NCBI GenBank assembly: GCA_003056085.1
Contig: LSNK01000002.1
Location: 42,485 to 106,484 of the forward strand
Origin: Parcubacteria group bacterium M6-OD1-1
GTDB lineage: Bacteria > Patescibacteriota > Minisyncoccia > GWC2-36-17 > M10-OD1-4
DNA length: 64,000 nt
Reading direction: 5' to 3'
The position numbers and the translations under genes are program-made. This document shows, in pieces, positions 4,828-49,268 of this stretch (positions are counted from its first letter, which is position 1; each line of letters begins with the position of its first letter). Under the pieces are notes generated by a model that did no database searches, was not told the origin of the DNA, and worked only from the letters and a program-made list of their open reading frames with translations.

Positions 4828-5008
4828 GCCAATATTATTTAAATTTATAAACGAAACTCAATACGCAGTGTTAAATTTAACTACAATATTGAGCACCCCT
4901 TACTTGGACCGCTAAAAAACAAATTATAAAATTCTAATAAATAATTTATTTTTTAAACTAAAGTTAATAGATAAGGTTTTTAATCCCGCTGAAATGAGAA
5001 CAAAACCC

Positions 5009-5416: not shown

Positions 5417-5522
5417 AAGAATATATTAATGATTATATTTTCATATTACTCCAAAAAAACTAATTTGTAAATTAAGAGCCTAAATGTTAAAATATTGACA
5501 GTAATAATTAATTTTTAAACTT

Positions 5523-5801: not shown

Positions 5802-5802
5802 A

Positions 5803-5843
5803 AAACAAAAAAACCGGTGAAATATTTTAGCCGGTTTTTTTGT
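5803..5843. terminator. Bidirectional rho-independent terminator (A-run, aaccgg...ccggtt, T-run)
   Basis: Hairpin flanked by an A7 tract and a T8 tract between convergent genes. Confidence 0.65.
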
Positions 5844-5856
5844 TTGTCTAAATTTT

Positions 5857-6429: not shown

Positions 6430-6677
6430 TTATTTTTATATAAAACTCTCCACCAATACTTGCCTTGAAAAAAACCAAACAAAAGCCCTCCTCCTAAAGT
6501 AATGCCCGCCCATATCTTGTGAATAAAAAACCAATTATTTACTGAGAAGCCTAAACTGTATTTTTCAAAGTCACCAACGAGAAGATCTATGCCTGCTATT
6601 TCAATCACCGAGTGAATTAAAAAACCCAAAAGTAAGCCTAAAAAAGAAAATGATATTATATAAACTAATTTTTTCAT
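6426..6677 (-). CDS. Small membrane protein
   Basis: 83 aa, two TM helices, 4-nt overlap with the downstream gene. Confidence 0.4.
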   Translation of the reverse strand: MKKLVYIISFSFLGLLLGFLIHSVIEIAGIDLLVGDFEKYSLGFSVNNWFFIHKIWAGITLGGGLLFGFFQGKYWWRVLYKNK

Positions 6678-6710
6678 ATTTACCCAAAAATAAATAGCTT
6701 TAATTTAAAA

Positions 6711-10670: not shown

Positions 10671-10706
10671 CGTAGCATATGGTGACGGTCGTCACCATAT
10701 GCTACG
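10671..10706. repeat. Perfect 16-bp-stem palindrome cgtagcatatggtgac-ggtc-gtcaccatatgctacg
   Basis: Read directly; shares the apex tgacRgtcgtca with the neighbouring hairpin. Confidence 0.6.
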
Positions 10707-10763: not shown

Positions 10764-10817
10764 TAAAAAAATAACAACATTTCTGACAGTCGTCAGAAAT
10801 GTTGTTATTTTTTTATT
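10764..10817. terminator. Bidirectional terminator for murB: 18-bp perfect stem aataacaacatttctgac-agtc-gtcagaaatgttgttatt flanked by A7 and T8
   Basis: Read directly. Confidence 0.65.
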
Positions 10818-28527: not shown

Positions 28528-28554
28528 TAACGTTCGAGGTTGAACCTCGAACGT
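28528..28554. repeat. REP-A copy 1 (aacgttcgaggttGaacctcgaacgtt)
   Basis: Palindrome family gttcgaggtt[S]aacctcgaac. Confidence 0.8.
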
Positions 28555-28566
28555 TAATCTCGAACA

Positions 28567-28607
28567 TAAAAAAGAAAGGAGGTGATATATCATCACCTCC
28601 TTTTTAA
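28567..28607. terminator. Bidirectional terminator aaaggaggtgat-atatc-atcacctccttt
   Basis: 12-bp stem flanked by A/T runs. Confidence 0.6.
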
Positions 28608-28610
28608 AAA

Positions 28611-29550
28611 TTACTCTTTTTTGCCGTGTAATTCAAAAATAACATCATTGAGCCTGCTAAGATTGTCCTGGCATTTTTCAATTCGTTTTTTGATTTCCAA
28701 AACATCTTCAGGATTTATTCTTGAAACAATATCTTTTAAAGAACTCTCCGGCATCATATTTACAGCATTTACTTCCTTATTTATTCTTTCAACAAAAGAA
28801 ACAAATTTCTGAATATTACTGCTTATCCTTTTTCTTCTTTTGATAACCATATGACTATCAGGAAGCCCTTCAACCACATTATTTACAAAACTCTGCCTTT
28901 CCTTCCCGCTTTTTAATGTCAGCATTTTTTCGTATATGCTTTTTTGATGTTCACAAGACACTTTTGCAAGAATTAAAGCCGTAGTAAATCTAAGCCTCTT
29001 GTCGTCCGAAACATTAGGATGCATTAGACTTTGGAGTTCCGGAGATAATCTTTGCAAAGAAAGATATTGAGAAACCCAAGAACCAGACTTGCCAAGACCT
29101 ATTGCAATTTCAGAAATAGACCTGTTGGCTACCACTTCTTTTTTTAAAGCATTTGATATCTCCATATTCGTATGGGGGTTTTTTGTGAAAATTCAAAATA
29201 AGAGAAGCTGAAAAAAGATCATCAACGCTCTTTATATCCATATCTATATAGATTTTGACACGCCTTACATCGGCATGCACACAACCTCTCCATCTGCTTT
29301 CACCATCAATTATGACATATTTTACGCCGGGAATACCGCAAACCTCCACAACAGAAACGGGGTCTTTCAATCCCTTGGTTATTATACTTTCTGAAAGTGA
29401 AATAATCTCCTCCTCACAAAACCAGTCTCTCGGCTGTCCTTTGTAAGGAGCTATTTCTTCAATATTTGCCATTGTAGGCAATATATGACAATCGGGATTT
29501 TGTATAACAATGTTTTCATCCTTCAAATCCACCGCTTCAGAAACATTCAT
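28611..29550 (-). pseudogene. parB-like gene split by a frameshift. An N-terminal ParB/Srx nuclease-like domain (29110..29550) is followed, after a frame change at a T7/A7 homopolymer (29139-29145), by the HTH part (28611..29165).
   Basis: GQPRD...YVIIDGESRWRGC ParB N-domain; ISEIAIGLGKSGSWVSQYLSL HTH; the two ORFs overlap 56 nt in different frames across the A7 tract. Confidence 0.6.
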
Positions 29551-29683
29551 AGATAGTTTCCTCCTTTATTGTTAAAGTTCTTTTTTTAAAAAAATCAATC
29601 CAAAAAATTTGACATTTTTTTATTCATATTACATACTCAATTTATTAGCACATTAAAAACCAAAAAACAAGGAGATTGCCGTT

Positions 29684-30409
29684 ATGAACCGCCTATCAGA
29701 TGAAGAAAAATTGGTTAAAAAACATAGATTATTGGTAAAAAATATAGCCTATAAAATATCATTAAAACTGCCAAAAAGCATTGCTCTTGATGATCTTATT
29801 CAAGATGGCATGATCGGACTTTTAGACGCTGCTAAAAAATATGACTCTTCTCTTGGGTCATCATTTGAAACTTACGCCAGCATACGCATTCGCGGAAACA
29901 TACTTGATGGATTGCGCAACAGCAATATTCTTCCAAGAGGAATCATTCATCTTTCTCAAAAAATAAAAAAAGCAGAAGAAAAAGTTCAAAACAAAAAACT
30001 AAGACCCATCACAAATAGTGAAGTAGCAAAAGAAATGGATATTCCAATAAAGGAATTTCATAAAATACTAAATGACATTCAACAAGGCAACATGATATCA
30101 ACTGAAAATTCACGATTTACCAATGACTCAAAAGGAAGATCAGTTCTTGACTGGTATGAAGACAACAACTTCAATCCGGAAGTAATTTTAGAAATAGAAG
30201 AATTCGTTGACTCATTAAGCGCATTCGTAAAGTCATTACCGGAAAGAAAACAGGCTATTTTCACATTGTCTGAAATAGAAGGTTTAAGCGAAAGAGAAAT
30301 AGGAGTACTGTTTGGTATATCAGAATCAAGAGTAAGTCAAATCTTAGCTAAAGTACGAAACGAATGGAAAGCGGAACAATTTGCAGCAAACTTAAAACTG
30401 ATTGTTTGA
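29684..30409 (+). CDS. Sigma-70 family sigma factor (FliA/sigma-28-like group 3) with a strong SD (AAGGAG) 10 nt upstream
   Basis: Region 2 FETYASIRIRGNILDGLR; region 4 LSEREIGVLFGISESRVSQILAKV. Confidence 0.85.
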   Translation: MNRLSDEEKLVKKHRLLVKNIAYKISLKLPKSIALDDLIQDGMIGLLDAAKKYDSSLGSSFETYASIRIRGNILDGLRNSNILPRGIIHLSQKIKKAEEKVQNKKLRPITNSEVAKEMDIPIKEFHKILNDIQQGNMISTENSRFTNDSKGRSVLDWYEDNNFNPEVILEIEEFVDSLSAFVKSLPERKQAIFTLSEIEGLSEREIGVLFGISESRVSQILAKVRNEWKAEQFAANLKLIV

Positions 30410-30420
30410 TAAACAAATCC

Positions 30421-30458
30421 AAAGCCCCTCGTTGCCTTAAGGCAACGAGGGGCTTTTT
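30421..30458 (+). terminator. Terminator: 16-bp perfect stem aaagcccctcgttgcc-ttaa-ggcaacgaggggcttt plus T5
   Basis: Read directly. Confidence 0.75.
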
Positions 30459-30475
30459 CATTCTCCCATAGATTC

Positions 30476-30498
30476 TCCCATAGGTGTCACCTATGGGA
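30476..30498. repeat. REP-B copy 1 (tcccataggtgTcacctatggga), preceded by a partial duplication ctcccatag
   Basis: Palindrome family cccataggtg[W]cacctatggg. Confidence 0.8.
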
Positions 30499-30534
30499 AT
30501 TCCTTGTTCGAGGTTCAACCTCGAACAAGGAATT
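30498..30534. repeat. REP-A copy 2 (37-nt palindrome aattccttgttcgaggttCaacctcgaacaaggaatt), directly abutting REP-B1
   Basis: Read directly. Confidence 0.8.
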
Positions 30535-30535
30535 T

Positions 30536-32161
30536 TTATTTTTTCAAAAGAAGTCTCGCAACTCTCAGCTCATCAAAAGAAAAATCACGACCAAGTATGT
30601 CACGAACAGGCACAAGCTTTGTGTCTTTTGTTTTTAAAAAAGCATTTTTTATCTCCTTTAGTCTGCTTTTTTTAAACTCCGCCTCCAAATATTTTAAATC
30701 CAACTCCTCCCCACCTGCTAAAATCTTTTCCAAATACCCCACAACTGTCCTCTCTTTTATACCTCTTTTTTCTGCAATTTCAGAAATAGAAAGTTTTTTT
30801 TCAACAAGCAGTTTAGTTTTTTTTAGCGTGGAAACATTTTCTTTTTCAGTTTTTTCAACCTTGCCCAAAAATTTATTCAGTTTATCTTTTTTTTCTTCAT
30901 CATCTAACTTCTTAAGCTCGCTTAAAGCTTTCTCTGACGCCTCTTTCAGCTCTTTGTCTAAAAAAAGCGCTTCTTCATTAACTTTAAGAGCCATATTATT
31001 AAGTCCCAAAAGCTTAAGCCCGGAAAGTGAAGAAACGCGCGATAAAGCGACATAGCCCATCCCTTCTACAAATGATCTTGAAAGATCTATTTCAGCGGCG
31101 TCCAAAGTCATCCCTTGGCTTTTGTGTATGGTTATCGCCCAAGCTAAACGCAAAGGTATTTGCCTTACCTGCGCTCGAACTTTCCCATCTTCCTCAACGC
31201 TCCACTCCGCCGGCTCCGCCAATATATTTTTTCCGCTGAAAGTTTTTACCAAAGGCAATCCGGAATCGGAAAATCCAATAACCTCACCAAGCGTTCCATT
31301 GGCATATCCGGTATCAAAATTATTTTTCGTAAACATTACAAAAGCCCCCCTCTTCAAGATAAGTCTTTCAGGCGAAAGACAGCTGTTTTTTAAGCTTTCC
31401 GAAAGCTTTTTATTTCCGGAAAGCTGCATTTGGTAGGACTTTGCCGTCTCAGATATCTTCCTAAGTTCTTTCTCATTAACTCTATCCACATCAAAATTAT
31501 GCGTATGAAGTTTTGTCGCAACAGAACTTTCAACAACTCCATCAAACCTTTTTTGTAAAATATCAAGAGTATTTTTCCTAATTTCTCCGGAGCGAATATC
31601 CTCAAGTACTCCCAGAAGCTCATCTTTATTTTGACGATGCTGTTCACTTAAATAACAAACCTTCAAGTCCATACCGCTCCAAACCTTGGATTTGTTTATA
31701 AAATCCGCTTTTTTACTGCCTTGGCTGATGGGAGGCAGCTGAAAAAAGTCCCCGCAAAGCACAACCTGTAAACCGCCAAACGCAAGATTATTTTCAAAAA
31801 AAGCCTTTAAAACCTCATCCACCAAATCCAATCTAAAAGAGTGAAGCATAGAAACCTCATCAATTATCAAAACTTTAGTTTTTTTAAAACGCCGCGCAAC
31901 TTGCGGTTTTTTAAGCACCTTAAAAACCTCCTCGGGAGAAAGAAAATCACGGATACCAAGCCCGGACCAGGAGTGAATAGTCATCCCGTTCATATGAGTT
32001 GCGGCAACTCCGGTTGAGGCGGTAACTCCAACCCCGACTTTATTTTCTTTTAAAAATTTAATGTATTTATTCAACACAAAAGTCTTCCCGCTCCCGGCAG
32101 AACCCGTCAAAAAAACATTATGCCCCATTTTCAAAATTTCAAGTGTTTCTTTTTGCGTCAT
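30536..32161 (-). CDS. PIF1/RecD-family DNA helicase with a C-terminal HTH domain. The start is taken at MTQKETLEIL; the track start lies inside the REP-adjacent C-run.
   Basis: VFLTGSAGSGKTFVL, VTASTGVAATHMNGMTIHSW, LIIDEVSML, ...ITIHKSQGMT. Confidence 0.8.
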   Translation of the reverse strand: MTQKETLEILKMGHNVFLTGSAGSGKTFVLNKYIKFLKENKVGVGVTASTGVAATHMNGMTIHSWSGLGIRDFLSPEEVFKVLKKPQVARRFKKTKVLIIDEVSMLHSFRLDLVDEVLKAFFENNLAFGGLQVVLCGDFFQLPPISQGSKKADFINKSKVWSGMDLKVCYLSEQHRQNKDELLGVLEDIRSGEIRKNTLDILQKRFDGVVESSVATKLHTHNFDVDRVNEKELRKISETAKSYQMQLSGNKKLSESLKNSCLSPERLILKRGAFVMFTKNNFDTGYANGTLGEVIGFSDSGLPLVKTFSGKNILAEPAEWSVEEDGKVRAQVRQIPLRLAWAITIHKSQGMTLDAAEIDLSRSFVEGMGYVALSRVSSLSGLKLLGLNNMALKVNEEALFLDKELKEASEKALSELKKLDDEEKKDKLNKFLGKVEKTEKENVSTLKKTKLLVEKKLSISEIAEKRGIKERTVVGYLEKILAGGEELDLKYLEAEFKKSRLKEIKNAFLKTKDTKLVPVRDILGRDFSFDELRVARLLLKK

Positions 32162-32180
32162 AATTTTATTTCCAACCCCC

Positions 32181-32211
32181 CCCATGTTCGAGGTTCAACC
32201 TCGAACATGGG
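32181..32211. repeat. REP-A copy 3 (cccatgttcgaggttCaacctcgaacatggg)
   Basis: Read directly. Confidence 0.8.
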
Positions 32212-32225
32212 AAAATTGAATTAAA

Positions 32226-35200
32226 TTAGAATTTTTGAGCGGACCACAAAATAAAAGATATATTCCCTGCAATTTCCGCACCTTTGCCGTCTAAATTTAA
32301 AGCGTTATTAAATGGACCTGACTCTTCTCCCCACCAATTGTTTTTTGCACTTATAGGTAAAGATCCTCCACCTCTTACCGTGTATTTACTGATTATGCTT
32401 GGATAAATATTTGAATTAGAAATTGTAATCTTAGACTCTCCTTGAGTATAAAGACTTTCATTTGAAATATTTTTAAATTCTGAATTTAATATAACAACCT
32501 CTCCATCATCTAAGGCAACTATACCTCCTGTATTTTCTTCAAAAACAGTATTAGACATCTCTATACTTCCCCCTCTTGCGAAAATAACTGCCGACTGAAA
32601 AGACCCTTGTAAAGAAAAATTACCTCCATAAGAAAATACAACATTATCAAAAACTGCTATCTTGCTTTTTTCTGTGATGTTTAAAGCCCCCCAAAGTCCG
32701 GCTCGATAACCATTTTCCTCCGTATTTGGAGTTGATAAAGCTGTAAAATATATTTTATTTTCTTTTGTTCCTACAGCTTCTATTTCGCCATTAATTACAA
32801 ATACAGCATTTTGCATCATACTCAAGGTTACCCCGGAAGCTATTGTTAGTTTAGCATTCTCGCCAACACTTAACCAATCAATAACATAGGGAATATCTTT
32901 TTCAAATACAAAATCATCATCAATATTTGCTAAAATTCTTACTCTGCTTTTTTCATCAAAATCATTATCTAAAATAGTCAATCTGCTTCCAATATTCCCT
33001 CTTATAAAAATATTATCCTTATCTCCCTCAAAATTATTTTTTTCTATCTTGAACTCAGAAGTTGTTGCAGTTTTTAAATAAATATCAATAATATTTCCGG
33101 AAAAATTATTTTCTGAAATAACAGAAGATGACTTTTGATCGCCTGCATATATACCATATCCATTGAATTCTCTATTGGAATAAACATTTGGTTCTGTATT
33201 TTTAATTTCACAACCGGATATTTCAGGATAAGAATTTTCTTCTATATTTATTCCGAACGCTTTACTTTCTTCAATTCTACAATTTAAAATTTTAGGACTT
33301 GAATTTTTAATATACAAAGAACCTTTATAATCATCTGAAGAATACCTATTTGAAGCTCCCCCATATCTTATAATAACATTTTCCAAAACAGAATTAGATG
33401 CTTCTTCTCCAAATATTTTAATATTTCTCCACATACCTGACTTTGTTTCTACATCCTGTTTGTCGCTATTATATCCATCCACCTCATCATCTGATATATA
33501 TGTAAAAATAATTTTTTCTTCTTTTGTTCCTTTAGCGCTTAAAGTTCCGTATACAATGATTGGAGTTACTAAAGAATCTTGATAATTCCTATTCCGAGAG
33601 GACTTAATAACGACCCCGGGATCAATTTCAAGCTCTCCGCCTTTTTGAATCGTTATGCTTGACTCCACAATGTACGACATATCATTTTTTGAAAAAATTG
33701 CTTTTGTGCTTGAAGCTATCGCGCCAGCTATATATATCCCGTCTTCTTTATTTTCATCTTTATTATTTTTTATCTTAATATTAAAAGAATTTGAATATAT
33801 GTCTATATTTCTTTCGTTTCCGGAAAAAATATTATTTTTTATTATCAATGGAGTACTTGATGCTGATTTAGAAACTATACCTTTGTTATTATTTTCAAAA
33901 ATACTATCCAAAATTTCTGCTGTTGAACTTGCATCTTTTATATAAATTCCATATCCGTTTTGCGCTTTGTTGTTTATGTAGCTTGCATCAGTATTCTTTA
34001 TAGAACAATTTGCTATTTTGGGGTTCGAACCATCTTTTATATAAATTCCATATCTACTCGAATTATCAATAACACAATTTTCTATTTTTGGACTTGAGCT
34101 GAATACACTTAAAGCGCCCTCGGACACAAAACTCATCTGAAATCTTTTTGCCGCTCCTCCATATTTTATTTGAATATTTTTCAAAACTGACTCCTCTCCT
34201 GTATTTTCGAAAACTATCCCTCTCCAATCTCCAAAAACAGGCTCTCTATTTTCCAATTGGTCAGAATTAACTCCGTCTGCTTCATCATCAAAAAATGAAG
34301 TAAATATTATATCTTCATTTTCCACTCCTTTAGCATCTAAAATTCCATTTACCAATAAAAAAGACTCTGTATTTTGATTTGACTTTACACCTCCAAACTT
34401 AACTGTCACTCCCGGCTCTATGATTAAAGTTACACCTTTTTGAATAGCAATTCCATAATTTATATAATAAGGACTCGCTTCTTTTGACCAAAAAGTATCT
34501 TTTTCTATATTTTTACCTATATGTGTATAAAGCCCTGAAACGCTATTCTTTCTTCCTGGAGTCCCCAAAATTTCATTTTCTGAAGCATCTTTTGCAAAAA
34601 CATCACCAGAAAAATCAAGCCAGTTTAAAGCATCGTCACCTTCTGAATAAACACTGACACGCTCCATTGTTCTTTTTTCTGAATTATCACCGGCATGCCA
34701 CTTATTTGTAAAATCAATTAAATCTCCTTTATTATCTCTTAAAAATAAATCCGATCCCAACCCAATATTATTCATAGCTCCGGTATAAAGTTGATTTTCT
34801 TTAATGTCAGTCGTTGTGCTTGCTGTTCTTTCAAGTAGATAATATCCTTTCGGCTCTATCACACCGGTAAGTTCAATAGAAAAATTTTTTGAATTTTTAA
34901 GAGTCCAACCGGAAAGATTTATTTCATAGTCCATTTTATTGTAAAGCTCTATCCACTCATCACTTGAGTCTGCACTTGTCCCCATCCATGCAATTTCATT
35001 TATAACCACCGGGACTTTATAAGACAAAAACTGCATTAAAGCCCAATTTGATTCTATCTTATTTTCTATATTTTTTGCCTTTACCCGAAAAATATATTTT
35101 ACATCATCTCCTGTTGTTAAAAACTCAACTGTCGTTGAGCTTGTTTGATCCTCTATATCCTGCCAATCCTCTTGAAAATTTGTTTTATATTGCAAATCAT

Positions 35201-37028
35201 AAACTATACTTTCTGTACTTGAGGCATTCTCAAATTCCGCTCCAAAACTTAAGACCACTTTCTTTTTACTAACATCATAACTGCTTAATATTAAAAATGG
35301 ATCTCCTAAAACTAAAATCTTTTTAGTCGAAGATGCTATTTTATCAAGTACATCTTCAGTAGAGGATGCTATTTCTCCTGCGAGAACACTCTCCGTTGAC
35401 GATGCTATTTCGTTAATTATATTTTTGGTTGACGACGCTGTATCTTCAGCTAAAACATCACCCATTGGATCTTCTTTTTGTTTTTCAACTTCAATAACCA
35501 AACCGGCAGAGGCGCTGGCCGAACCACCGGAAAAAACAGGTACCACATTAACACCACCCAAAAAATTAGCTGGCACCTCCACAATATCATATTCACTCTC
35601 CACCACTTCATCCTTAGTCACCACTTCAACCTCATCATTCTCCACTAAAACACTTTCATCCCCCACTTTAACATCGTCTTCCACCACTTTAGTCTGAGTA
35701 GTTTCTTGGGTTAATGGTAACGCTTCGGGAACAAGAACATCAAAATCAACTTTCGGAGCGCTCTGTTTGGCGTCTTTTGCACTCTCAACCACTACATCTA
35801 TAATCTTCTCATTAATAATTTTAGAATCTTCTTTTTGATTTTTATTAACTTCTAATAAAACATTATTTTTTACATTATTTTGAGTGTTGTTTGGAAAAAT
35901 AGAAATAAAACTCGCAGATAATTTACTATTCATGTTACTCGCGAAACTTTTAACACCATCAAAAATATCAATAGCTTCATCTTTAATATTTTCAACAACT
36001 TTTACAATTAAACTTTTATTTTTATTATATAAAGCAAATGTTTGTTTTTCTTTTTTAACCTCTTTAAAAAATAACTCAATCACACCGGCACCGTGTAAAA
36101 CAGCTTGCTTGGAAAGAAGATTCCAATAATCATTTAAAATTAAATCATCGTAATCTTTCAAAGAATATAAATCTTCAAAATCAAGTATCGCAAAATTAAA
36201 TTCTCTTTTAATTTTAACAAGTAAGTAGTTGTCTTTATAAAGAAATCTATAACTTTTTCCATCACTTAACAAAATTTCTTTTTCATTTTTGTTTATAACT
36301 GGCTCAATAAATATATCATTATTTATTGTATTCCTACTAAAAAAGTTATTATTTGAATAATTAGCAATACTATCAAAATATTCATCCAAAGAATTTAGTT
36401 TTATCTCTTCTTGACCTTCCAACTTACTTGCAATATCTATAGTTGATAAACTAAATTTTTTAGCCCAATTTTCATAAATACTTCTTTGATGAAAAACAGA
36501 ATCTAAAATTGGAGGATGAGCATCATTTCTTGTATGCGCAGGAACGGACGCATCTTCAATTAAGTGTAAAATATGTCCTAAAGATTTCATTGCCCTTTGT
36601 CTATCTCCATAAACATACTCATAAATAGCTCTGTCCCAGGAAAAATCAGAACCAAAACTAAAATAATCACGCAACAAATTGAAAAGACCTGCCTGACTTT
36701 TTGATAATGAAGCCTGCTTTTCCGTGCTTTGTGCCCAGATTTTTGAGGTAACACCACCTTTCATGGCTTTATTATTAATTGGATCATAAAAATGATTTAA
36801 AGCTCTTGTCCCTGGACTATCTTCATCTACGCTCCCCTGCATAATATTAATCTCGTCATTCTTACTAATTTTTTCAGGATATTTACTTTTATAAAATTTT
36901 ACCATCTCTTGAGTTAGCCCTCTATGTGTAGTTTCCGGACTGTAAGCATACAAAAAAACAGGAATAGTAAAAAATATTATTCCCACAAAAACATATTTTA
37001 TTACATTTATAAGCTTTCTATTTTCCAT
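32226..37028 (-). CDS. Giant (1600 aa) secreted/surface protein: zinc-dependent phospholipase-C/P1-nuclease-like domain, a Ser/Thr-rich linker with ASSTE repeats, a lamin-tail domain, and multiple right-handed parallel beta-helix (PbH1) repeats
   Basis: N-terminal TM/signal; HLIEDASVPAHTRNDAHP; VINEIAWMGTSADSSDEWIELYNKMDYEINLSGWTL; repeated NCxIxNS..YGIYI.D/ISGCEIKNT motifs. Confidence 0.75.
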   Translation of the reverse strand: MENRKLINVIKYVFVGIIFFTIPVFLYAYSPETTHRGLTQEMVKFYKSKYPEKISKNDEINIMQGSVDEDSPGTRALNHFYDPINNKAMKGGVTSKIWAQSTEKQASLSKSQAGLFNLLRDYFSFGSDFSWDRAIYEYVYGDRQRAMKSLGHILHLIEDASVPAHTRNDAHPPILDSVFHQRSIYENWAKKFSLSTIDIASKLEGQEEIKLNSLDEYFDSIANYSNNNFFSRNTINNDIFIEPVINKNEKEILLSDGKSYRFLYKDNYLLVKIKREFNFAILDFEDLYSLKDYDDLILNDYWNLLSKQAVLHGAGVIELFFKEVKKEKQTFALYNKNKSLIVKVVENIKDEAIDIFDGVKSFASNMNSKLSASFISIFPNNTQNNVKNNVLLEVNKNQKEDSKIINEKIIDVVVESAKDAKQSAPKVDFDVLVPEALPLTQETTQTKVVEDDVKVGDESVLVENDEVEVVTKDEVVESEYDIVEVPANFLGGVNVVPVFSGGSASASAGLVIEVEKQKEDPMGDVLAEDTASSTKNIINEIASSTESVLAGEIASSTEDVLDKIASSTKKILVLGDPFLILSSYDVSKKKVVLSFGAEFENASSTESIVYDLQYKTNFQEDWQDIEDQTSSTTVEFLTTGDDVKYIFRVKAKNIENKIESNWALMQFLSYKVPVVINEIAWMGTSADSSDEWIELYNKMDYEINLSGWTLKNSKNFSIELTGVIEPKGYYLLERTASTTTDIKENQLYTGAMNNIGLGSDLFLRDNKGDLIDFTNKWHAGDNSEKRTMERVSVYSEGDDALNWLDFSGDVFAKDASENEILGTPGRKNSVSGLYTHIGKNIEKDTFWSKEASPYYINYGIAIQKGVTLIIEPGVTVKFGGVKSNQNTESFLLVNGILDAKGVENEDIIFTSFFDDEADGVNSDQLENREPVFGDWRGIVFENTGEESVLKNIQIKYGGAAKRFQMSFVSEGALSVFSSSPKIENCVIDNSSRYGIYIKDGSNPKIANCSIKNTDASYINNKAQNGYGIYIKDASSTAEILDSIFENNNKGIVSKSASSTPLIIKNNIFSGNERNIDIYSNSFNIKIKNNKDENKEDGIYIAGAIASSTKAIFSKNDMSYIVESSITIQKGGELEIDPGVVIKSSRNRNYQDSLVTPIIVYGTLSAKGTKEEKIIFTYISDDEVDGYNSDKQDVETKSGMWRNIKIFGEEASNSVLENVIIRYGGASNRYSSDDYKGSLYIKNSSPKILNCRIEESKAFGINIEENSYPEISGCEIKNTEPNVYSNREFNGYGIYAGDQKSSSVISENNFSGNIIDIYLKTATTSEFKIEKNNFEGDKDNIFIRGNIGSRLTILDNDFDEKSRVRILANIDDDFVFEKDIPYVIDWLSVGENAKLTIASGVTLSMMQNAVFVINGEIEAVGTKENKIYFTALSTPNTEENGYRAGLWGALNITEKSKIAVFDNVVFSYGGNFSLQGSFQSAVIFARGGSIEMSNTVFEENTGGIVALDDGEVVILNSEFKNISNESLYTQGESKITISNSNIYPSIISKYTVRGGGSLPISAKNNWWGEESGPFNNALNLDGKGAEIAGNISFILWSAQKF

Positions 37029-37603
37029 ACTTTATTATTTTTTAAAAATATAATTGTATTACTAATTTTTTCTCCAGCAGGTATTGTAAATATAACATTA
37101 CCATCCTCATCCATTAATGGCTTTGTTTTTTCTACTATGTATTCTAAAATATAAACCATATAATCATCTGAATTTAAGGAAGAATTGGATTTTATTAATA
37201 CAGATTTTTCTAACTGATTAATCTTTACTTGCAACTCATTATTCTCTTTCCCAACCTTAAATTGCTCAGCCATTTGCTGCTGCTTCTCCACAATAAAATA
37301 TTTAGCCGCCAATTCTGTGTTCCCAGCTTTTAAAGCATTAATAAAAAGCTGTAAAGTCTCTTTCGGAGTACTTCCACCATATGTATCTTTCTCATACTCT
37401 TTTTTTAATCCTTCATAATATTCTAAATATTCTTTTTGAGAAGAAAATCCAATATTTTCTGAAGGTATAAATTCTTCTTTTGTTATACTTTCTAAAAAAA
37501 CAAATATCAATCCTCCAACTATTAATAACAATACAAAAACTATTGATATTATTTTGATCTTTAAATTTTTAATAATTTTCTTTTTCTGTATATTCTCTTT
37601 CAT
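37007..37603 (-). CDS. Membrane-anchored hypothetical protein (198 aa)
   Basis: N-terminal TM; overlaps the giant gene start by 22 nt. Confidence 0.45.
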   Translation of the reverse strand: MKENIQKKKIIKNLKIKIISIVFVLLLIVGGLIFVFLESITKEEFIPSENIGFSSQKEYLEYYEGLKKEYEKDTYGGSTPKETLQLFINALKAGNTELAAKYFIVEKQQQMAEQFKVGKENNELQVKINQLEKSVLIKSNSSLNSDDYMVYILEYIVEKTKPLMDEDGNVIFTIPAGEKISNTIIFLKNNKVWKIESL

Positions 37604-37704
37604 GTCCTTTAAAATTAATATTTAATATTTATTTAAAATTAGTTATATTATTTAAAATTAATATCAATCCCAAAACATCATTACTCCCATCTATATTCGA
37701 TGTC

Positions 37705-37731
37705 TATGTTCGAGGTTCAACCTCGAACATA
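37705..37731. repeat. REP-A copy 4, immediately downstream of the RAYT-1 stop
   Basis: tatgttcgaggttCaacctcgaacata. Confidence 0.8.
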
Positions 37732-37752
37732 TAAAAGATATTTGATTTTTCT

Positions 37753-38448
37753 TTATTCCAATATTAAATCTTTTAAAAATTTCTCATTATTTTTCCCTAT
37801 CCAATTTCTTATAAATTCCATCATTTCCTCATTATTTTTCCAATAATTAGGAAAAGTTTCCTTGTTAATTATTTTATCTGAAAAATCATCTTTTAAATAA
37901 TTTTTATAACTTGACCATTTATATCCCTCTATAAACTTAATTGCATCATCAATATTTAAAATTCCATTTTCCTTCCATTTTGACTCCACCAAATCCAGTG
38001 GATTTATATGAATATATACAAATAAATGCCTCAAATACTCATCCTTGCTAATATGAACAGCTTTAAATCTTCCCTCAAACAAAGATCCCGTTCTTTTATT
38101 TTTTTTATTAAAATACATAGTGTATCCAGTGCCAAGCTTTCTCATGAACTCAGTGATTCCTCCCTCTTTATTTTCCCTAATCAATAAATGAAAATGATTT
38201 GGCATAAAGCAATACAAAACAACATCAACTAATTTTTCTTGATCCCCTCCCATCCCAAGGTCTTCATGTTCGAGGTTCAACCTCGAACATGAAGACCTTG
38301 TAAGTTTTGAAGGCTTATTAGAATTAAACTCTCTAAGTCCTAATTTAAATCTTTCATAAAATTTCGGACCTAAAAAAATATTGCGCTTGTCAACACCTCT
38401 ATTATATATATGATAGTATTCTCCTTGTTCAAATTTATGTTTTCTCAT
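37753..38448 (-). CDS. REP-associated tyrosine transposase (RAYT, IS200/IS605 TnpA Y1 family), paralogue 1; carries an in-frame REP-A copy inside the ORF
   Basis: YHIYNRGVDKR, HuH motif MPNHFHLLI, catalytic-Y region GSLFEGRFKAVHISKDEYLRHLFVYIHINP; colinear with E. coli TnpA_REP (HMHCIW...QPRFWEHAIRNTKDYRHHVDYIYINPVKHG). Confidence 0.8.
   Translation of the reverse strand: MRKHKFEQGEYYHIYNRGVDKRNIFLGPKFYERFKLGLREFNSNKPSKLTRSSCSRLNLEHEDLGMGGDQEKLVDVVLYCFMPNHFHLLIRENKEGGITEFMRKLGTGYTMYFNKKNKRTGSLFEGRFKAVHISKDEYLRHLFVYIHINPLDLVESKWKENGILNIDDAIKFIEGYKWSSYKNYLKDDFSDKIINKETFPNYWKNNEEMMEFIRNWIGKNNEKFLKDLILE
38257..38301. repeat. REP-A copy 5: 45-nt perfect palindrome caaggtcttcatgttcgaggttCaacctcgaacatgaagaccttg located inside the RAYT-1 coding sequence (codes ...RLNLEHEDLG...)
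   Basis: Read directly. Confidence 0.8.
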
Positions 38449-38490
38449 AATATTTTATTATCATTATTCCCCTCCTATGCTCTACCCTTT

Positions 38491-38515
38491 ATGTTCGAGG
38501 TTGAACCTCGAACAT
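38491..38515. repeat. REP-A copy 6, immediately upstream of the RAYT-1 start
   Basis: atgttcgaggttGaacctcgaacat. Confidence 0.8.
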
Positions 38516-38526
38516 GGGAGATTTTT

Positions 38527-40614
38527 CTATTTAATTTTTCCTTCTTTTATGTCTTTAATAAATTGAGTAGCACGAGCTCTTTCCTTCGGGAAAAGCTCTA
38601 TTATTTTTTTAGTGGTTTTTATGGCTCTTTCTTCCTCGCCCATTTTTGCAAAAGCGACAGCCACGTCTATATATTGCTTCGTTGAGAGCTTTCTTGTATT
38701 TAAAATATTATTATAAACATCTATGGATTTTTGTTTTTGACCAAGTTTTGCATAATTAAACGCGAGCGTCATTTCAAATTTAAGACTACCCGTAAGTTCT
38801 GCCGCTTTTTTTAAGTTTCTAAGCGCTTCTTCATTTTCTCCCAAAAGAGCCTTTATTCTATACCTTTGAAGATACAAAGTTGGTTTTTGCGGAGCAAATT
38901 CCAAAGATTTTTCCAAAACTTTGTCGGCTTCCAAAAGAAGATCTCTGTTTTCTCTATCCACCGCTGCCATACTTGAAAGAAATAGATAATATCTAAAATT
39001 ATCCGGCTCTTCTTTTGCTGTTTTTCTTAACTCTTCTTCAGTTTTATCAAAAAATCTCCTTTTTTGTTCTTCCGGCATATTTTTTATTTTTGTGATTTTC
39101 TGAGCGTATTCAACCATCCTTGAACGCATTTCAGGCTTTCCCATAAGAGCTGTTTCTAAAGATTTCTCAAAATATCCCAAAGCTTCATCTGACCTTGAGG
39201 GATGCAGCTGTAACGCCTGGATGCCAAAATAAGAAGACTGAGCGGGTTTGACATTGAAGCCATAGATCAAAAAACCCAAAATAACAATAAGCAAAACAGC
39301 CGGTTGTATCGGAATATTTGCTTTTTTGTCTGCAATTTCCTCTTTTTCTGATGTTAAAAATACAAAAAATGCGAGTAAAAAGAAAAATGATAAATAAGTA
39401 ACCAAACTGTCAAAAACAAATATATTTTGGAAAAAATAAGCAAAAAGCAAAGCCATAAAAAGATAACTCACAAAGAAATTATCTTCATTTTTCCTCCTGT
39501 ACTGCAAAAGCAAATAGATAGCCGCGGCAAATATAGCCAAGTAACTTAAAAGACCCACAAAGCCGGCTGAAGACAAAGTGTCAAAAATTATATTATGCGC
39601 ATGATCAAACCAACTCTCTGCCGGATAAAGTCTTGGGTCATAGTATTTGTCAAAAATCAAATTGTAATTTTCCATTCCCCAACCCAAAACAGGATGCTCT
39701 TTAACCCCTTCCCAGCTTACACCGGCTGACAAAATTCTTGTTTTTGTGGTTGAATCTGTTAAAGATATGGAAGTTAATCTTTTTATAGGCTCCAAAAACG
39801 CATTTGCATTAAACAAAGCCAATATCAAAACCAAAAATAACCCCTTCAATATCCAATTAAATATTTTATTTTTTGCAGGATTAAGCCATTCTTTCAAATT
39901 TGATTTGTTTTTAAAGAAAAATGCTCCGCCCAAGAACAAAAATGACGCTAAAACGCCCAAAATAGCCCCTCTTGTTGAACTTAAATACAAAGCCAACAAA
40001 CTCACAAATAAAGAAACTCCATAAAAATATTTGAACTTATTTTTATCCGAAAACAGCAAAAACATCGCGAAAAAAGCATTAAACATCATATAAGCCGAGA
40101 AAAATGCGGCGTTTCCTATTGTGGCGTCTATTCTATTGGTCCCGGAGTTATATAAAAAAGAAAATCCTATTTTTTGTCCAAGCCCATACAAACCGACGAT
40201 AAAACCTGCCGCCAAAAAAGACCTGAAAAGAAAAATCCAATCTCTTTTTTTTAAAAATATAGATTTTGCAATCAAAAAAAGCGCCACAAAATGCGCTAAA
40301 TTAAAAATCCCCAGCATCCTTTCAAATGTTCCAAAAAAACTTCTAAAAATATTTTCTCCAAAAATTGCAGCTATAGTAAAAACGCCAAGAAAAACCAAAA
40401 CACTCTTTGTCAGCACATCAAACTTAGGAAGATAAGATTTATTTGAAATCGCTAAAATAATATATAAAAACAGCGCCACCTCTATCAAAACCTGAAAAAC
40501 CAATGTTTTAGGAACTATAAATGGAAAATAAAACTGATCCAAAACAATAAGAGGAGTGAAAAAAGACGTCGCAATAATCCATTTTATTATATTTACGATG
40601 GTTGATTCTTTCAT
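38527..40614 (-). CDS. O-antigen ligase-like (Wzy_C) polytopic membrane protein fused to C-terminal TPR repeats, paralogue 1
   Basis: LSSTRGAILGVLASFLF motif in a roughly 12-TM domain; C-terminal TPR-like helical repeats; about 50% identical to the neighbouring gene. Confidence 0.7.
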   Translation of the reverse strand: MKESTIVNIIKWIIATSFFTPLIVLDQFYFPFIVPKTLVFQVLIEVALFLYIILAISNKSYLPKFDVLTKSVLVFLGVFTIAAIFGENIFRSFFGTFERMLGIFNLAHFVALFLIAKSIFLKKRDWIFLFRSFLAAGFIVGLYGLGQKIGFSFLYNSGTNRIDATIGNAAFFSAYMMFNAFFAMFLLFSDKNKFKYFYGVSLFVSLLALYLSSTRGAILGVLASFLFLGGAFFFKNKSNLKEWLNPAKNKIFNWILKGLFLVLILALFNANAFLEPIKRLTSISLTDSTTKTRILSAGVSWEGVKEHPVLGWGMENYNLIFDKYYDPRLYPAESWFDHAHNIIFDTLSSAGFVGLLSYLAIFAAAIYLLLQYRRKNEDNFFVSYLFMALLFAYFFQNIFVFDSLVTYLSFFFLLAFFVFLTSEKEEIADKKANIPIQPAVLLIVILGFLIYGFNVKPAQSSYFGIQALQLHPSRSDEALGYFEKSLETALMGKPEMRSRMVEYAQKITKIKNMPEEQKRRFFDKTEEELRKTAKEEPDNFRYYLFLSSMAAVDRENRDLLLEADKVLEKSLEFAPQKPTLYLQRYRIKALLGENEEALRNLKKAAELTGSLKFEMTLAFNYAKLGQKQKSIDVYNNILNTRKLSTKQYIDVAVAFAKMGEEERAIKTTKKIIELFPKERARATQFIKDIKEGKIK

Positions 40615-40645
40615 TTTTTATTTTAGAGTTTATGCGTTCAATGGT

Positions 40646-40676
40646 TACCTCCCATAGGTGTCACCTATGGGAGGTA
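40646..40676. repeat. REP-B copy 2 (tacctcccataggtgTcacctatgggaggta) between the two Wzy-TPR paralogues
   Basis: Read directly. Confidence 0.8.
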
Positions 40677-40691
40677 AAGGAAAATTTTATT

Positions 40692-42809
40692 TTATTCTAT
40701 TTTGAAATTTCCGTTCAAAAACCTGCCTTTCTCAATCTCCTTTATAAACAATGGTCCGTCAGACTTAAAATCAGGGTTATTTTCCATTATTTTCTTTATT
40801 ATTGTTATTGCTTTATCATTCTCCCCCATACTTGCCAATTCAACCGCAATAGTAATTTGTTTTTTTAAATCTATACCGCCTCTTTCAAAAATCTTTTCTA
40901 AAAGCTCAATTGACGCCTTAGTATCTCCTATTTTTCTGTAACTTGACGCCAAAACAATACTTATATCAGGATCATAATACAAATCCATAGCTTGTTTTAA
41001 TTCACTAAGCGCCTCTTCATTTTTTCCTAAAAGAGCCTTCACCCGATATTTTTGAAGGTGTAGTGTTGGTTTGTTTTTAGCGAGTGGAGTAATCTTATCT
41101 AAAGCTGCGTCTATTTCTTTTAGAAGCTCCTTGTTCTCTCCGTCTATAAATGCCGCATTAGTAAAGTATGAATAATACCTAAAATTTTTCGGCTCTTCGG
41201 AAATCGCCTCTCTTGCCCTCTCTATAGTTTTTTTTGCAAATCTTGTTTTTGCGTCACCTGATATATTCTCATTACGCGAAAGATTTATAGCGTAATCCAT
41301 CATTCTTGAGCTTATTTCAGGCTTCCCCTGTAATGCAAAATCAAATGCCTTTTTAAAATTCTTAAGAGCATCATCAGAATAATTAGGAGATGTAATTATA
41401 GCATTAGTTATGTAGTGAGCAGCCATAGCCGGCTTAATATTAAAAAAATAAACAACAGCTATAAGCGTAATCAGTAAAACCCCAAAAGAGGCGGGGTTGA
41501 TGCCGGACTTATTACCGGTATACGTGCTTTTTTCTCCTGTTGATAAAAATCCAACAAATGCCAATAAAATAAAAAATGGCAAATACGTAGCAAGCGCATC
41601 AAATACAAAAAGATTTTGAAGAAAATAAGCCAATATTAATGCCATAAAGATACGACTGACAATAAAGTTTTCTTCTTCTAATTTTCCATAACAAAAAAGC
41701 AAATAAATAACAACTCCCAAAAGAAATAAATAACTTAAAAGCCCAAATGCTCCGGCAGAAATTAAATTATCAAATATTATATTATGCGCATGATCAAACC
41801 ATTCTTCTGCAGGATATAGTCCCGGATCATAATATTTATCAAAAACCAAGTTGTAGTTTTCAGGCCCCCACCCCAACAAAGGACGCTCCAAAAAACCATT
41901 CCAACTCACTCCTGCCGCCAAGATTCTTGTTTTTGTCGTTGTGTCATTAAGCGATATAGAACCTATTCTTTTTAAAGGATCTAAAAGAATATCTTTATTA
42001 ACAAAAAATAAAATAATAATTATTGCAAAAAATCCAAAAATCCAAGCCAATCCTTTATTACTCTTAATGTTTGAAAATTTTATATTCTTCCTATTATGCA
42101 AAAGCCAAGCACCGGCTAAAAATAAAAATGCGAAAAAAGCCCCTAAAATAGCTCCTCTGGTTTCACTTAAATAAATACCTAAAATACCAATAATAAATGA
42201 AAATTTATAAAAATAATTAAAAAATTTACTTCCTCTGTCAATAAACATTAAAGCCATTGCGAAAAAGGTGTTAAATATCATATAAGCGGCAAAAAAAGCG
42301 GCGTTTCCTATAGTTGAGTCTATTCTGTTTGTCCCTTCATTATACAAGGAAGAAATACCAAGCTTTTGTCCAAATCCATAAAGCCCTACAATAACACCAG
42401 CAAATAAAAATACTCTGAAAAGCTTTATCCAGTCTTTTTTATTTGTAAATACAGCTCTGAGTATAAAAAATAAAACAACAAAATGCGCTAAATTAAAAAC
42501 CCCGAGCATCCTTTCAAATGTTCCAAAAAAACTTCTAAAAACATTCTCTCCAAAAATCCCTGCTATTAAATAAACCCCGAAAAAAAGCAAAACTGATTTT
42601 GCCAAAATATCCATTTTTGGTAAATATGATTTGTTGGATATCACTAATAAAATATAAAAAAACAAAGCCACTTCTATCAAAACTTGAAAAAAGATAGCTT
42701 TTGGAACTATAAATGGAAAAAAGAAATAATTAACTATAAGAATTGGAGCAAAAAATGAGGCAAATATTAATCCTTTTATTATTTTTAAATTTAAGACTTC
42801 TCCTATCAT
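40692..42809 (-). CDS. O-antigen ligase-like (Wzy_C) membrane protein with C-terminal TPR repeats, paralogue 2
   Basis: LSETRGAILGAFFAFLF; same architecture as 38527..40614. Confidence 0.7.
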   Translation of the reverse strand: MIGEVLNLKIIKGLIFASFFAPILIVNYFFFPFIVPKAIFFQVLIEVALFFYILLVISNKSYLPKMDILAKSVLLFFGVYLIAGIFGENVFRSFFGTFERMLGVFNLAHFVVLFFILRAVFTNKKDWIKLFRVFLFAGVIVGLYGFGQKLGISSLYNEGTNRIDSTIGNAAFFAAYMIFNTFFAMALMFIDRGSKFFNYFYKFSFIIGILGIYLSETRGAILGAFFAFLFLAGAWLLHNRKNIKFSNIKSNKGLAWIFGFFAIIIILFFVNKDILLDPLKRIGSISLNDTTTKTRILAAGVSWNGFLERPLLGWGPENYNLVFDKYYDPGLYPAEEWFDHAHNIIFDNLISAGAFGLLSYLFLLGVVIYLLFCYGKLEEENFIVSRIFMALILAYFLQNLFVFDALATYLPFFILLAFVGFLSTGEKSTYTGNKSGINPASFGVLLITLIAVVYFFNIKPAMAAHYITNAIITSPNYSDDALKNFKKAFDFALQGKPEISSRMMDYAINLSRNENISGDAKTRFAKKTIERAREAISEEPKNFRYYSYFTNAAFIDGENKELLKEIDAALDKITPLAKNKPTLHLQKYRVKALLGKNEEALSELKQAMDLYYDPDISIVLASSYRKIGDTKASIELLEKIFERGGIDLKKQITIAVELASMGENDKAITIIKKIMENNPDFKSDGPLFIKEIEKGRFLNGNFKIE

Positions 42810-42908
42810 TTTATTTTAAAATTAAGTTAAACAATCCAACAAAGTTAGGTTGGATGAAAAAAATTTCTATTTATTAGTTAATTATACATCAAATATTTAG
42901 AATATCAA

Positions 42909-43613
42909 TTAATCTATCCCATAGGTGACACCTATGGGATCTTTGGAATAATTAATCCAAAAGTTTACAAAGTCATCAAATTCATTCTTATTATTGAAAT
43001 AATCAGGAAAAACCTCTTTATTTATAATCTTGCCTTCTGTCCTGTGTTTGTCTGTATAATCAGGATAGCTGGACCAAGAATATTCGTCTAAATATTTTCT
43101 TATTTGGCTTTGGTTAGAAGAATTTTTTAACTTATTTTTCCAATCAATATCCATTATTTTAACCGGATTAAGATGTATATAAGCAAATAAATATTTAAGA
43201 TACTCATCATTGTCCACATGAGATGACTTAAACGCTCCTTCAAAAAGACTTCCGACTCTCTTGTTCTTTTTATTAAAATACATTGAATAAGCAGTGAGTA
43301 TTTTTTTCATAAATAAACTTATTCCACCATCAATTTTCTCTTTAATAAGCAAATGAAAATGATTTGACATAAGACAATACGCGCCTACATCAACAATCGT
43401 ATCACCTCTATTAAATTTAAAAACATCAGAGACAGCAAATCCATTCATAAATAAATCTCTTATCGTTATGTTTTTTGTGGTATTACAAAGATACAATAAA
43501 CAAATAAACCTAAAATGATCTTTAGGCTCCATAAAAATAATTCGCTTATCTACTCCCCTGTTGTAAATATGATAATACTCACCTGGAGCAAATGATACTT
43601 TTCTGTTTCCCAT
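42909..43613 (-). CDS. REP-associated tyrosine transposase (RAYT), paralogue 2; the 3' end of the ORF is formed by a REP-B copy
   Basis: YHIYNRGVDKR, HuH motif MSNHFHLLI, GSLFEGAFKSSHVDNDEYLKYLFAYIHLNPVK. Confidence 0.8.
   Translation of the reverse strand: MGNRKVSFAPGEYYHIYNRGVDKRIIFMEPKDHFRFICLLYLCNTTKNITIRDLFMNGFAVSDVFKFNRGDTIVDVGAYCLMSNHFHLLIKEKIDGGISLFMKKILTAYSMYFNKKNKRVGSLFEGAFKSSHVDNDEYLKYLFAYIHLNPVKIMDIDWKNKLKNSSNQSQIRKYLDEYSWSSYPDYTDKHRTEGKIINKEVFPDYFNNKNEFDDFVNFWINYSKDPIGVTYGID
42916..42940. repeat. REP-B copy 3 (atcccataggtgAcacctatgggat), overlapping the RAYT-2 C-terminal codons (DPIGVTYGI)
   Basis: Read directly. Confidence 0.8.
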
Positions 43614-43643
43614 AGCCTAAATTATACCATAATTCTCAATTCT

Positions 43644-43664
43644 ACATAGGTGACACCTATGGGA
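43644..43664. repeat. REP-B copy 4 (degenerate: acataggtgAcacctatggga) just upstream of the RAYT-2 start
   Basis: Read directly. Confidence 0.65.
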
Positions 43665-43690
43665 TGATGTTTGTGTTGTGTGTACACACA

Positions 43691-43729
43691 CAAAAACCCC
43701 GATCTTATAAAAAGAATCGGGGTTTTTGC
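43691..43729. terminator. Terminator aaaccccgat...atcggggttt flanked by A/T runs (3' of the large surface-protein gene)
   Basis: Read directly. Confidence 0.6.
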
Positions 43730-48961: not shown

Positions 48962-49159
48962 TTTCTGATTTATAATTAATTTGAATTACTAAATGAAAAA
49001 TATTTCAATTATAATAAATTTAAATTAATTACTTTTAAATTAGAGATTAATTTTTAGGGAAATTATATATATTTAGATTTTCCCTATTCAATAAACAAAT
49101 CAAAAACTATTTCCTAATTCTTAAAGTATTGGGAAGTATAGATTATTTATAAGGAAAAA

Positions 49160-49197
49160 TCAATACCCCTCACTTGCGTGCAAGTGAGGGGTATTGA
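49160..49197 (-). terminator. Terminator: 17-bp perfect stem tcaatacccctcacttg-cgtg-caagtgaggggtattga plus T5 on the minus strand
   Basis: Read directly. Confidence 0.6.
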
Positions 49198-49268
49198 TAA
49201 GGAAATTTAATTAGGAAATGAAGTATTTTATCTTTATTTCTTTGAATCTTCTATTTTTTATTTAAAAT

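Follow-up and report, generated by a model that had tools for sequence, protein, structure and literature searches.

The window analysed here is a 64-kb stretch of contig LSNK01000002.1 from Parcubacteria group bacterium M6-OD1-1 (assembly GCA_003056085.1, positions 42,485 to 106,484 of the forward strand), and every within-organism copy count given below refers to these 64 kb. The stretch has a GC content of 33%, nearly every gene in it lies on the minus strand, and no compositional island was found in it, both GC content and skew being uniform. It contains two genes for putative transposases of the type associated with repetitive extragenic palindromes (REPs), which we call REP-associated tyrosine transposases (RAYTs): RAYT-1 (37753..38448, minus strand, 231 amino acids) and RAYT-2 (42909..43613, minus strand, 234 amino acids). 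Each is accompanied by copies of its own family of short palindromes, family A being cognate to RAYT-1 and family B to RAYT-2, and it is the relationship between these genes and their palindromes, both in the window and in related bacteria, that is the subject of this study.

The two open reading frames (ORFs) are intact and, as the original prediction held, encode Y1/HuH proteins with the motifs quoted there. They score 32.7 bits (RAYT-1) and 35.3 bits (RAYT-2) against the Pfam Y1_Tnp profile (PF01797), i.e. above its gathering threshold of 23, and they retain all the columns that are invariant in an alignment of 25 members of the family, including NHFH and the tyrosine of YIH[IL]NP. The two proteins are 47% identical to each other. 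Their tyrosine motifs, YIHINP and YIHLNP, are of the Y---NP type; a survey of the superfamily distinguishes class 2 TnpA_Y1 proteins, which are RAYT-like and have Y---NP, from IS200 proteins, which have Y---Q (PMC6006769), and by these criteria of sequence the two proteins of the window are class 2, RAYT-like. The AF2 model of RAYT-2 (pLDDT 82.8) finds its best match among solved folds in 4er8_A, the E. coli TnpA_REP protein with a REP hairpin, followed by the TnpA proteins of IS608, ISDra2 and IS200. Homologues number in the thousands and measure about 220-235 amino acids; those that carry names come from the Patescibacteria, or candidate phyla radiation (CPR), namely Paceibacteria, Minisyncoccia, Nomurabacteria, Vogelbacteria and Yonathbacteria. 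An exhaustive search gave 373 clusters (at 50% identity) with E <= 1e-30, and each of the homologue protein clusters was found on 1-3 contigs. When five relatives from outside the CPR were aligned (from Rhodospirillum, Pseudomonas, Legionella, Collinsella and Sporomusa; 24-31% identity), the CPR proteins were seen to differ from them by an insertion of 25-32 amino acids between helix A and strand 2, which is the segment hosting the internal hairpin described below, and by a second insertion of about 16 amino acids after the NP motif.

Concerning the palindromes, exact matches to core A (GTTCGAGGTT[S]AACCTCGAAC) start at 28532, 30506, 32186, 37708, 38268 and 38493, six in all, which bears out the six copies initially reported. 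Four copies had been reported for family B as well; three of them match core B (CCCATAGGTG[W]CACCTATGGG) exactly (30477, 40651 and 42918), while the fourth is imperfect, having two mismatches (43643) and being a perfect palindrome over 43645-43661 only. As a control for chance, dinucleotide-preserving shuffles of the window were searched (100 for core A), and none contained a match to either core. When perfect palindromes were searched for independently, nine of the copies came out as perfect inverted repeats, each with a single unpaired centre base, the A-family palindromes being 25-45 nucleotides (nt) long. Taken in order of position, the centre bases of family A are G, C, C, C, C, G and those of family B T, T, A, A; that the base is only ever G or C in the former and T or A in the latter, as had been noticed at the outset, is what one expects of one element read in both orientations. 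The ATG...CAT flanks thought to be usual in family A are present at four of the six copies and absent from the other two. The two families had also been taken as unrelated, and this did not hold: the tips of both A and B hairpins share AGGT-N3-ACCT, a common apex whose family-wide form is AGG-N5-CCT. Folded as single-stranded DNA (ssDNA), the copies form stable hairpins with energies between -10 and -25 kcal/mol (z-scores between -5 and -12). No match to A or B turned up in viral contigs, and Rfam gave none either.

Each RAYT gene is flanked by its own family only, about 30-40 nt upstream of the ATG and at or just after the stop codon, and this part of the original prediction stands not only for the window but for most of the homologous loci considered below. 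At RAYT-2, a B copy (42916-42940, 25 nt, centre A) overlaps the final codons (...PIGVTYGID*), and the imperfect B copy (43643-43663; perfect part 43645-43661, centre A) ends 29 nt upstream of the start codon. At RAYT-1, an A copy (37705-37731, 27 nt, centre C) lies 21 nt downstream of the stop codon and another (38491-38515, 25 nt, centre G; -12.2 kcal/mol as ssDNA) ends 42 nt upstream of the start codon. A third A copy, initially placed at 38257 and counted among those bracketing the gene, in fact starts at 38256 and is situated within the RAYT-1 ORF, in frame (38256-38300, 45 nt, centre C; -24.7 kcal/mol), where it encodes residues T50-G65 (TRSSCSRLNLEHEDLG); A copies otherwise do flank the gene on both sides. 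The five remaining copies are dispersed. One A copy (28528-28556, 29 nt, centre G) is intergenic and is followed by a partial duplicate of its arm, AATCTCGAACAT, at 28556-28567. A second (30498-30534, 37 nt, centre C) abuts a B copy (30476-30498, 23 nt, centre T) between convergent genes, 42 nt past an intrinsic-terminator hairpin (30421-30456), and the B copy is itself preceded by a partial arm duplicate, CTCCCATAG, at 30463-30471. The third A copy of this group (32181-32211, 31 nt, centre C) occupies the 40-nt gap between the start of a PIF1-helicase gene and the stop of a 1600-amino-acid ORF, and the last B copy (40645-40677, 33 nt, centre T) the 77-nt gap between tandem Wzy_C-TPR paralogues. 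Altogether, nine of the ten copies are in non-coding gaps; between 28.4 and 43.8 kb seven gaps out of nine are filled, against none out of 30 elsewhere.

To see how general this arrangement is, 80 metagenomic loci encoding relatives of RAYT-2 were fetched, giving 78 distinct loci. With thresholds of at least 8 nt for the arms and at least 35% GC, under which imperfect copies escape detection, a GC-rich perfect palindrome was found within 200 nt of the gene at 70 of the 78 loci, and at 32 of them the same palindrome family was present on both sides of the gene. Typically, 12-40 nt separate the end of the upstream copy from the ATG, and the downstream copy often overlaps the last codons or the stop codon. 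A centred AGG-N5-CCT characterizes 120 of the 134 near-gene palindromes; the remainder are mostly ordinary terminators or doublets in which two such units are combined. The enrichment does not depend on the palindrome filter, since 227 occurrences of AGG-N5-CCT were counted without it in 90 kb around the genes where about 22 would be expected. With at least three further pairs required, the motif is 23-fold denser near the genes than in 343 kb further out, where stemmed copies occur about once per 12 kb. Below the tip, the stem is locus-specific and tracks protein distance (Mantel r = 0.27, a value reached in 0 of 2000 permutations), a correlation that persists when the protein segment encoding the hairpin is excluded; RAYT-2's nearest relatives, for instance, have B-like cores of the CATAGG type. 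The upstream and downstream copies have the same orientation in 13 cases and inverted orientations in 13. Inverted doublets forming a larger palindrome were seen in about eight homologous loci, among them L009, L010, L013, L030, L031 and L040. The five dispersed copies of the window would all fit a spread in one direction, downstream of the gene, but this idea was dropped because homologous loci show both directions.

The juxtaposition of two systems is not peculiar to the window. Another CPR contig (L032) carries two convergent RAYT paralogues (5001-5672 and 6575-7225) with two hairpin families, AAGGCGAAACCTT and AAGGTTTAACCTT, and paired systems like that of the window therefore recur. One might still ask whether the co-occurrence is coincidental or an artefact of assembly, i.e. 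whether two transposase pseudogenes have by accident come to lie near palindromes that have nothing to do with them. It is a fact that metagenome contigs often break at these palindromes: several independent assemblies of the population to which the window belongs (L015, L002, L005, L089 and other short contigs) end a few tens of nucleotides from A or B palindromes, and such repeats therefore break CPR metagenome assemblies. However, the shuffled windows yielded no core match, both ORFs are intact, independent assemblies gave the same sequences, both in Logan and NCBI contigs (99.9-100% identity) and in a second strain, and gene and palindrome are again found together at some 70 independent loci. 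We consider the chance that coincidence or artefact accounts for the layout to be negligible.

The hairpin inside the RAYT-1 gene deserves separate consideration. The corresponding site carries AGG-N5-CCT in 33 of the 78 homologous genes, and in all 33 it is read in the frame xxA GGn, RAYT-1 being an exception in that its AGG is read as an Arg codon. The internal core is the same as the flanking core in 22 of the 33 genes and differs from it by at most one mismatch in 28, while a between-locus control gave a mean of 5.9 mismatches. The peptides encoded by the internal hairpin are conserved, e.g. IQGLPLD or xEG[RL][ST]F. A simple net insertion of the hairpin within the clade is ruled out by the length of the region, which is 31.5 amino acids with the internal hairpin and 30.0 without it. 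An orthologue of RAYT-1 that is 63% identical to it (P0272) uses the same frame as RAYT-1 and has the hairpin GAGGaAGTC-C-GACTcCCTC at its upstream, internal and downstream sites; because it thus differs from RAYT-1 at all three sites, the three copies at a gene change together over evolution. REPs lying in frame within tnpA_REP genes have been described by Quentin et al. 2018 (PMC6006769) for subclass 2.4, at a position that falls after the HuH and before the Tyr motif, and the in-gene REP phenomenon as such is therefore not new.

Both in the window and at all the homologous loci, copies of one family share a common core and differ in their outer arms, yet these arms are perfectly complementary. 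Just outside the perfect stem, complementarity falls to 24%, which is the chance level; in other words, the stems end abruptly. Two origins are conceivable for the outer arms: the core could have inserted at the tip of a hairpin that was already there, or the arms could have been extended on a template. Some indication comes from two orthologous upstream copies, those of L028 and L032, the arms of which differ in length, with an indel on one side and three substitutions without change of length on the other. Judged from these sequences, the difference favours hairpin-templated resynthesis (template switching, cf. quasi-palindrome correction), which would fit better than insertion into a pre-existing hairpin, though a single example is insufficient to settle where the arms come from.

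A comparison with a closely related strain (L092, GCA_003056185.1) gives an idea of shorter-term change. Over RAYT-1 the strain is 96.5% identical and has the same three A copies, the internal one being identical. Upstream of RAYT-2, two B cores stand in tandem in L092; the window has one copy at that place, which resembles a hybrid of both units, and this explains the imperfect fourth B copy. The two RAYT genes of the window are separated by two tandem paralogues encoding Wzy_C (O-antigen-ligase-like) and TPR domains (38527-40614 and 40692-42809, minus strand), one of which is bounded by two B copies and is an extra gene relative to L092. A REP-mediated indel was considered and rejected: L092 has a single Wzy gene (2014-4104) which is chimeric, with its 5′ end from one paralogue and the rest from the other, and ordinary recombination between paralogues therefore accounts for the difference. 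L092 also shows, at 5746-5918, a repeat of the segment made up of the region downstream of RAYT-1, the A copy and the start of a DUF4878 gene, placed after the first ∼130 nt of the homologue of the 1600-amino-acid ORF. The junction is about 8 nt from the A palindrome and lies at a contig end, so that the repeat may reflect either a genuine duplication or an error of assembly.

The upstream hairpins stand close to what look like promoters. We searched for -10 hexamers with at least five of six positions matching and ending 4-9 nt before the ATG, ORF starts having been assigned mechanically, and found one in 44 of 77 homologous genes (mode 6 nt); for ORF starts of the window taken as a control, the figure was 7 of 42. 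RAYT-1 has the -10-like sequence GATAAT, ending 8 nt before its ATG, and RAYT-2 a putative extended -10 element, TGGTATAAT (43621..43629, minus strand), ending 7 nt before its ATG. The presence of a -10 hexamer so near the ATG suggests, as far as sequence can tell, that RAYT transcripts are leaderless. Since the end of the upstream hairpin is 7-18 nt before the -10 hexamer, the hairpin would cover the -35 and spacer region, and in the TCAAGG...CCTTGACA types an arm of the hairpin supplies TTGACA at a spacing of 16 nt. Autoregulation of RAYT genes through the promoter-overlapping hairpin is therefore plausible.

These promoter data also speak for another explanation, in which the palindromes serve the host as regulatory hairpins of DNA or RNA (a -35 region, a terminator or an operator), the Y1 protein is a domesticated binder or regulator of them, and the hairpins spread by template switching or gene conversion rather than by transposition. 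Besides the position of the upstream copy and the -35 provided by its arm, this explanation would accommodate the copies that are terminator-like or located beside terminators, the perfect stems with their abrupt ends and the L028/L032 difference, which are consistent with templated correction, as well as the fact that copies are few and local. Against it, the HuH and Tyr catalytic residues are invariant in the family, which argues for a retained nuclease and ligase chemistry; the concerted turnover at three sites, including one in an ORF, is hard to obtain by passive processes; and solo copies exist away from RAYT genes. We regard this explanation as unlikely.

How do these modules compare with known systems? 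With E. coli TnpA_REP (subclass 2.2, or Bertels group 2; 4ER8) they have in common a single-copy Y1/HuH gene flanked by cognate hairpin repeats (a REPtron), the Y---NP motif and, for the RAYT-2 model, the closest structural match; as with E. coli REPs and bacterial interspersed mosaic elements (BIMEs), the repeats are in intergenic gaps, often at the 3′ ends of genes. On the other hand, the hairpins of the window have no GT[AG]G foot, their stems are perfect and not bulged, their outer arms are copy-specific, and the conserved element of the CPR hairpins is at the tip (AGG-N5-CCT). The CPR proteins are also about 70 amino acids longer and have a WSSY tail. The arrangement had been called a classic REP-RAYT-REP one; the REP-RAYT reading is supported, but the absence of the guide and the perfect stems with copy-specific arms are not classic. 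In our opinion the layout is genuine and represents a non-canonical form of the known REP-RAYT system, one that recurs in dozens of related ultra-small CPR bacteria.

When it comes to grouping the proteins, the motif set of the clade (NHFH, LFEG, YIHLNP and WSSY, in 231-234 amino acids) matches the signature of subclass 2.1, with its NH[YF]H, F/W-[EQ] and Y[IV]HLNP motifs, SS motif (WSSY) in the tail and length of ∼225-238 amino acids. The resemblance is at the level of motifs; the five relatives from outside the CPR with which the proteins were aligned are of this type too. Among the subclasses, 2.1 (Bertels group 1 RAYTs, TIRYTs among them) is the largest, and no REPs were found in it by either automatic or manual search (Quentin et al. 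2018, PMC6006769), whereas hairpin repeats flank most genes of the CPR clade; in addition, the CPR proteins have two clade-specific insertions and lack a long C-terminus containing a helix-turn-helix (HTH). Subclass 2.4 (Bertels group 4; Cyanobacteria and Bacteroidetes) is similar in having REPs in frame within tnpA_REP and ‘double-foot’ REPs with two-fold symmetry (PMC6006769), but its insertion is between the HuH and Tyr motifs and not before HuH as in the CPR clade, its motifs are WQ and YIxNNP, and its REPs carry GT[AG]G feet.

Three of the homologous loci, L009, L010 and L017, have flanking regions that are syntenic and 77-81% identical (over ∼4.8 kb upstream, and also downstream), but the RAYTs at the corresponding site are divergent and their hairpins differ. 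The module of gene and hairpins may change much more rapidly than the DNA around it, or it may be swapped as a cassette. Such exchangeability is also what one would expect if each gene with its two flanking hairpins were an autonomous IS200-like insertion sequence (IS), solo palindromes being leftover ends or miniature derivatives. The unit is indeed compact and stereotyped (hairpin, ∼20-40 nt, ORF, hairpin at the stop codon), and similarities to IS200/IS605 TnpA include the HuH/Y1 fold, for which IS608 and ISDra2 are lower-rank matches, and hairpins adjoining the gene. But IS200/IS605 elements are multi-copy and identical, use a Y---Q protein, and have distinct left and right ends on one strand that are cleaved under the guidance of a tetranucleotide, and none of these features was seen in the CPR modules. 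The two genes of the window are only 47% identical, and the confinement of each protein cluster to 1-3 contigs gives no sign of multi-copy identical elements; the motif is Y---NP, not the Y---Q of IS200 (PMC6006769); and the same perfect palindrome stands at both ends, in same or inverted orientation with equal frequency. We thus find it very unlikely that the modules are insertion sequences of this kind. REPINs, which Bertels and Rainey reportedly described in 2011 as REP doublets, offer a further parallel in that, at some homologous loci, a larger palindrome is built from two hairpin units in inverted orientation; in contrast, the window copies are all single palindromes, without any inverted doublet of the same family.

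Taking the evidence of sequence and predicted structure together, we estimate at roughly 80% the probability that the window contains, side by side, two REP-RAYT modules belonging to a CPR/Patescibacteria-specific clade. Several observations weigh on the other side. The 5′ tetranucleotide guide (GT[AG]G) anticipated for REP/RAYT pairs is absent from all ten copies of the window and was seen at 3 of 268 feet of the homologous loci, which is the chance level. Both proteins fail NCBIfam NF047646, the equivalog for REP-associated tyrosine transposases, with 40.3 and 41.3 bits for a cut-off of 80; the Rhodospirillum relative, which is subclass-2.1-like, reaches 77.4 bits on the same profile. A sequence-profile search of the PDB gave no match. 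All ten copies are inside 15 kb (28.5-43.7 kb), the remaining 49 kb of the window being free of them, and a scan of 185,579 representative genomes with core A found it in only 3 places. Of these, only one is convincing as the same element: another Paceibacteria metagenome-assembled genome (MAG; L008) contains a solo copy of type A, which has a perfect outer arm of its own and no RAYT within 8 kb. The two other core A matches, in a Scalinduaceae MAG and a Nitrospiraceae MAG, are probably unrelated or due to chance. Furthermore, no clean pair of filled and empty insertion sites was found, and the 78 loci, being the best tblastn matches to RAYT-2, are a non-random sample of the clade.

Knowledge of how RAYTs move or maintain REPs is so far indirect, and we can only propose how the CPR modules might work. 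Each RAYT would be a single-copy HuH/tyrosine (Y1) nuclease and ligase acting on ssDNA, with its own short perfect palindrome as substrate, the latter forming a hairpin once single-stranded. Throughout the clade the hairpins would have the AGG-N5-CCT tip in common and a stem below it that is lineage-specific and co-evolves with the protein, and they would be found in the -35/spacer part of the promoter, at or over the stop codon, often in frame in the clade-specific loop, and in a few nearby intergenic gaps. We suppose that the protein binds the tip of the hairpin on single strands exposed by replication, then cuts and rejoins them. By this reaction hairpins would be copied or replaced, mostly locally, so as to keep the copies around the RAYT gene identical, and the arms would be held perfectly complementary by hairpin-templated resynthesis through template switching.

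A more far-reaching version of this scheme, which we put forward tentatively and think may well turn out to be wrong, is that a RAYT of a CPR-wide clade carries its own substrate hairpin at three places, the reading frame, the promoter and the stop codon, identical within a lineage but changing from one lineage to the next. If so, an enzyme would drive the replacement, or ‘homing’, of resident hairpins, their arms would be perfected on a hairpin template, and the tip would be recognized rather than a GTAG foot; the gene would be permanently linked to a master copy and probably autoregulated.

Other features of the window may be mentioned in connection with these elements. Next to the dispersed copies, a ParB-like gene (28611-29550, minus strand) appears to be broken into two overlapping ORFs, one for ParB_N (146 amino acids) and one for KorB/HTH (184 amino acids), possibly as the result of a frameshift or as a pseudogene. 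The stretch that it forms with a sigma-70 gene (29684-30409) and the PIF1-type helicase gene (30536-32185) has the look of mobile-element cargo, although it does not stand out in composition. Near RAYT-2, a (TG)n/(CA)n palindrome, TTGTGTGTGTACACACACAA (43670-43690), lies immediately upstream of the B copy that precedes the gene; it is kept in L092 and is followed by a terminator-like hairpin in the 43699-43728 region. Two more perfect palindromes, with arms of 17 and 24 nt, are found 58 nt apart in an 829-nt non-coding gap (10671-10706 and 10764-10815); they have a common centre, TGAC[G/A]GTCGTCA, and are unrelated to A and B. A lone perfect palindrome with 19-nt arms, ATCAATACCCCTCACTTGC..GCAAGTGAGGGGTATTGAT (49159-49198), is present as a single copy in a 307-nt gap and does not have the AGG-N5-CCT tip.

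To our knowledge, REP-RAYT systems have been studied almost exclusively in Proteobacteria and Cyanobacteria, and we found no description of such systems in CPR/Patescibacteria in the searchable literature. The modules reported here would represent a distinct and very widespread version of the REP-RAYT system in the reduced genomes of these bacteria. By their motifs, the proteins fall in the largest subclass of RAYTs, which is one reported to be without REPs. Short perfect hairpins with a family-wide tip signature make simple oligonucleotide substrates, and the scheme leads to definite predictions: that the proteins would recognize the tip, that each would be specific for its own family of hairpins, that hairpins would be replaced, and that the gene would be autoregulated through the copy overlapping its promoter.

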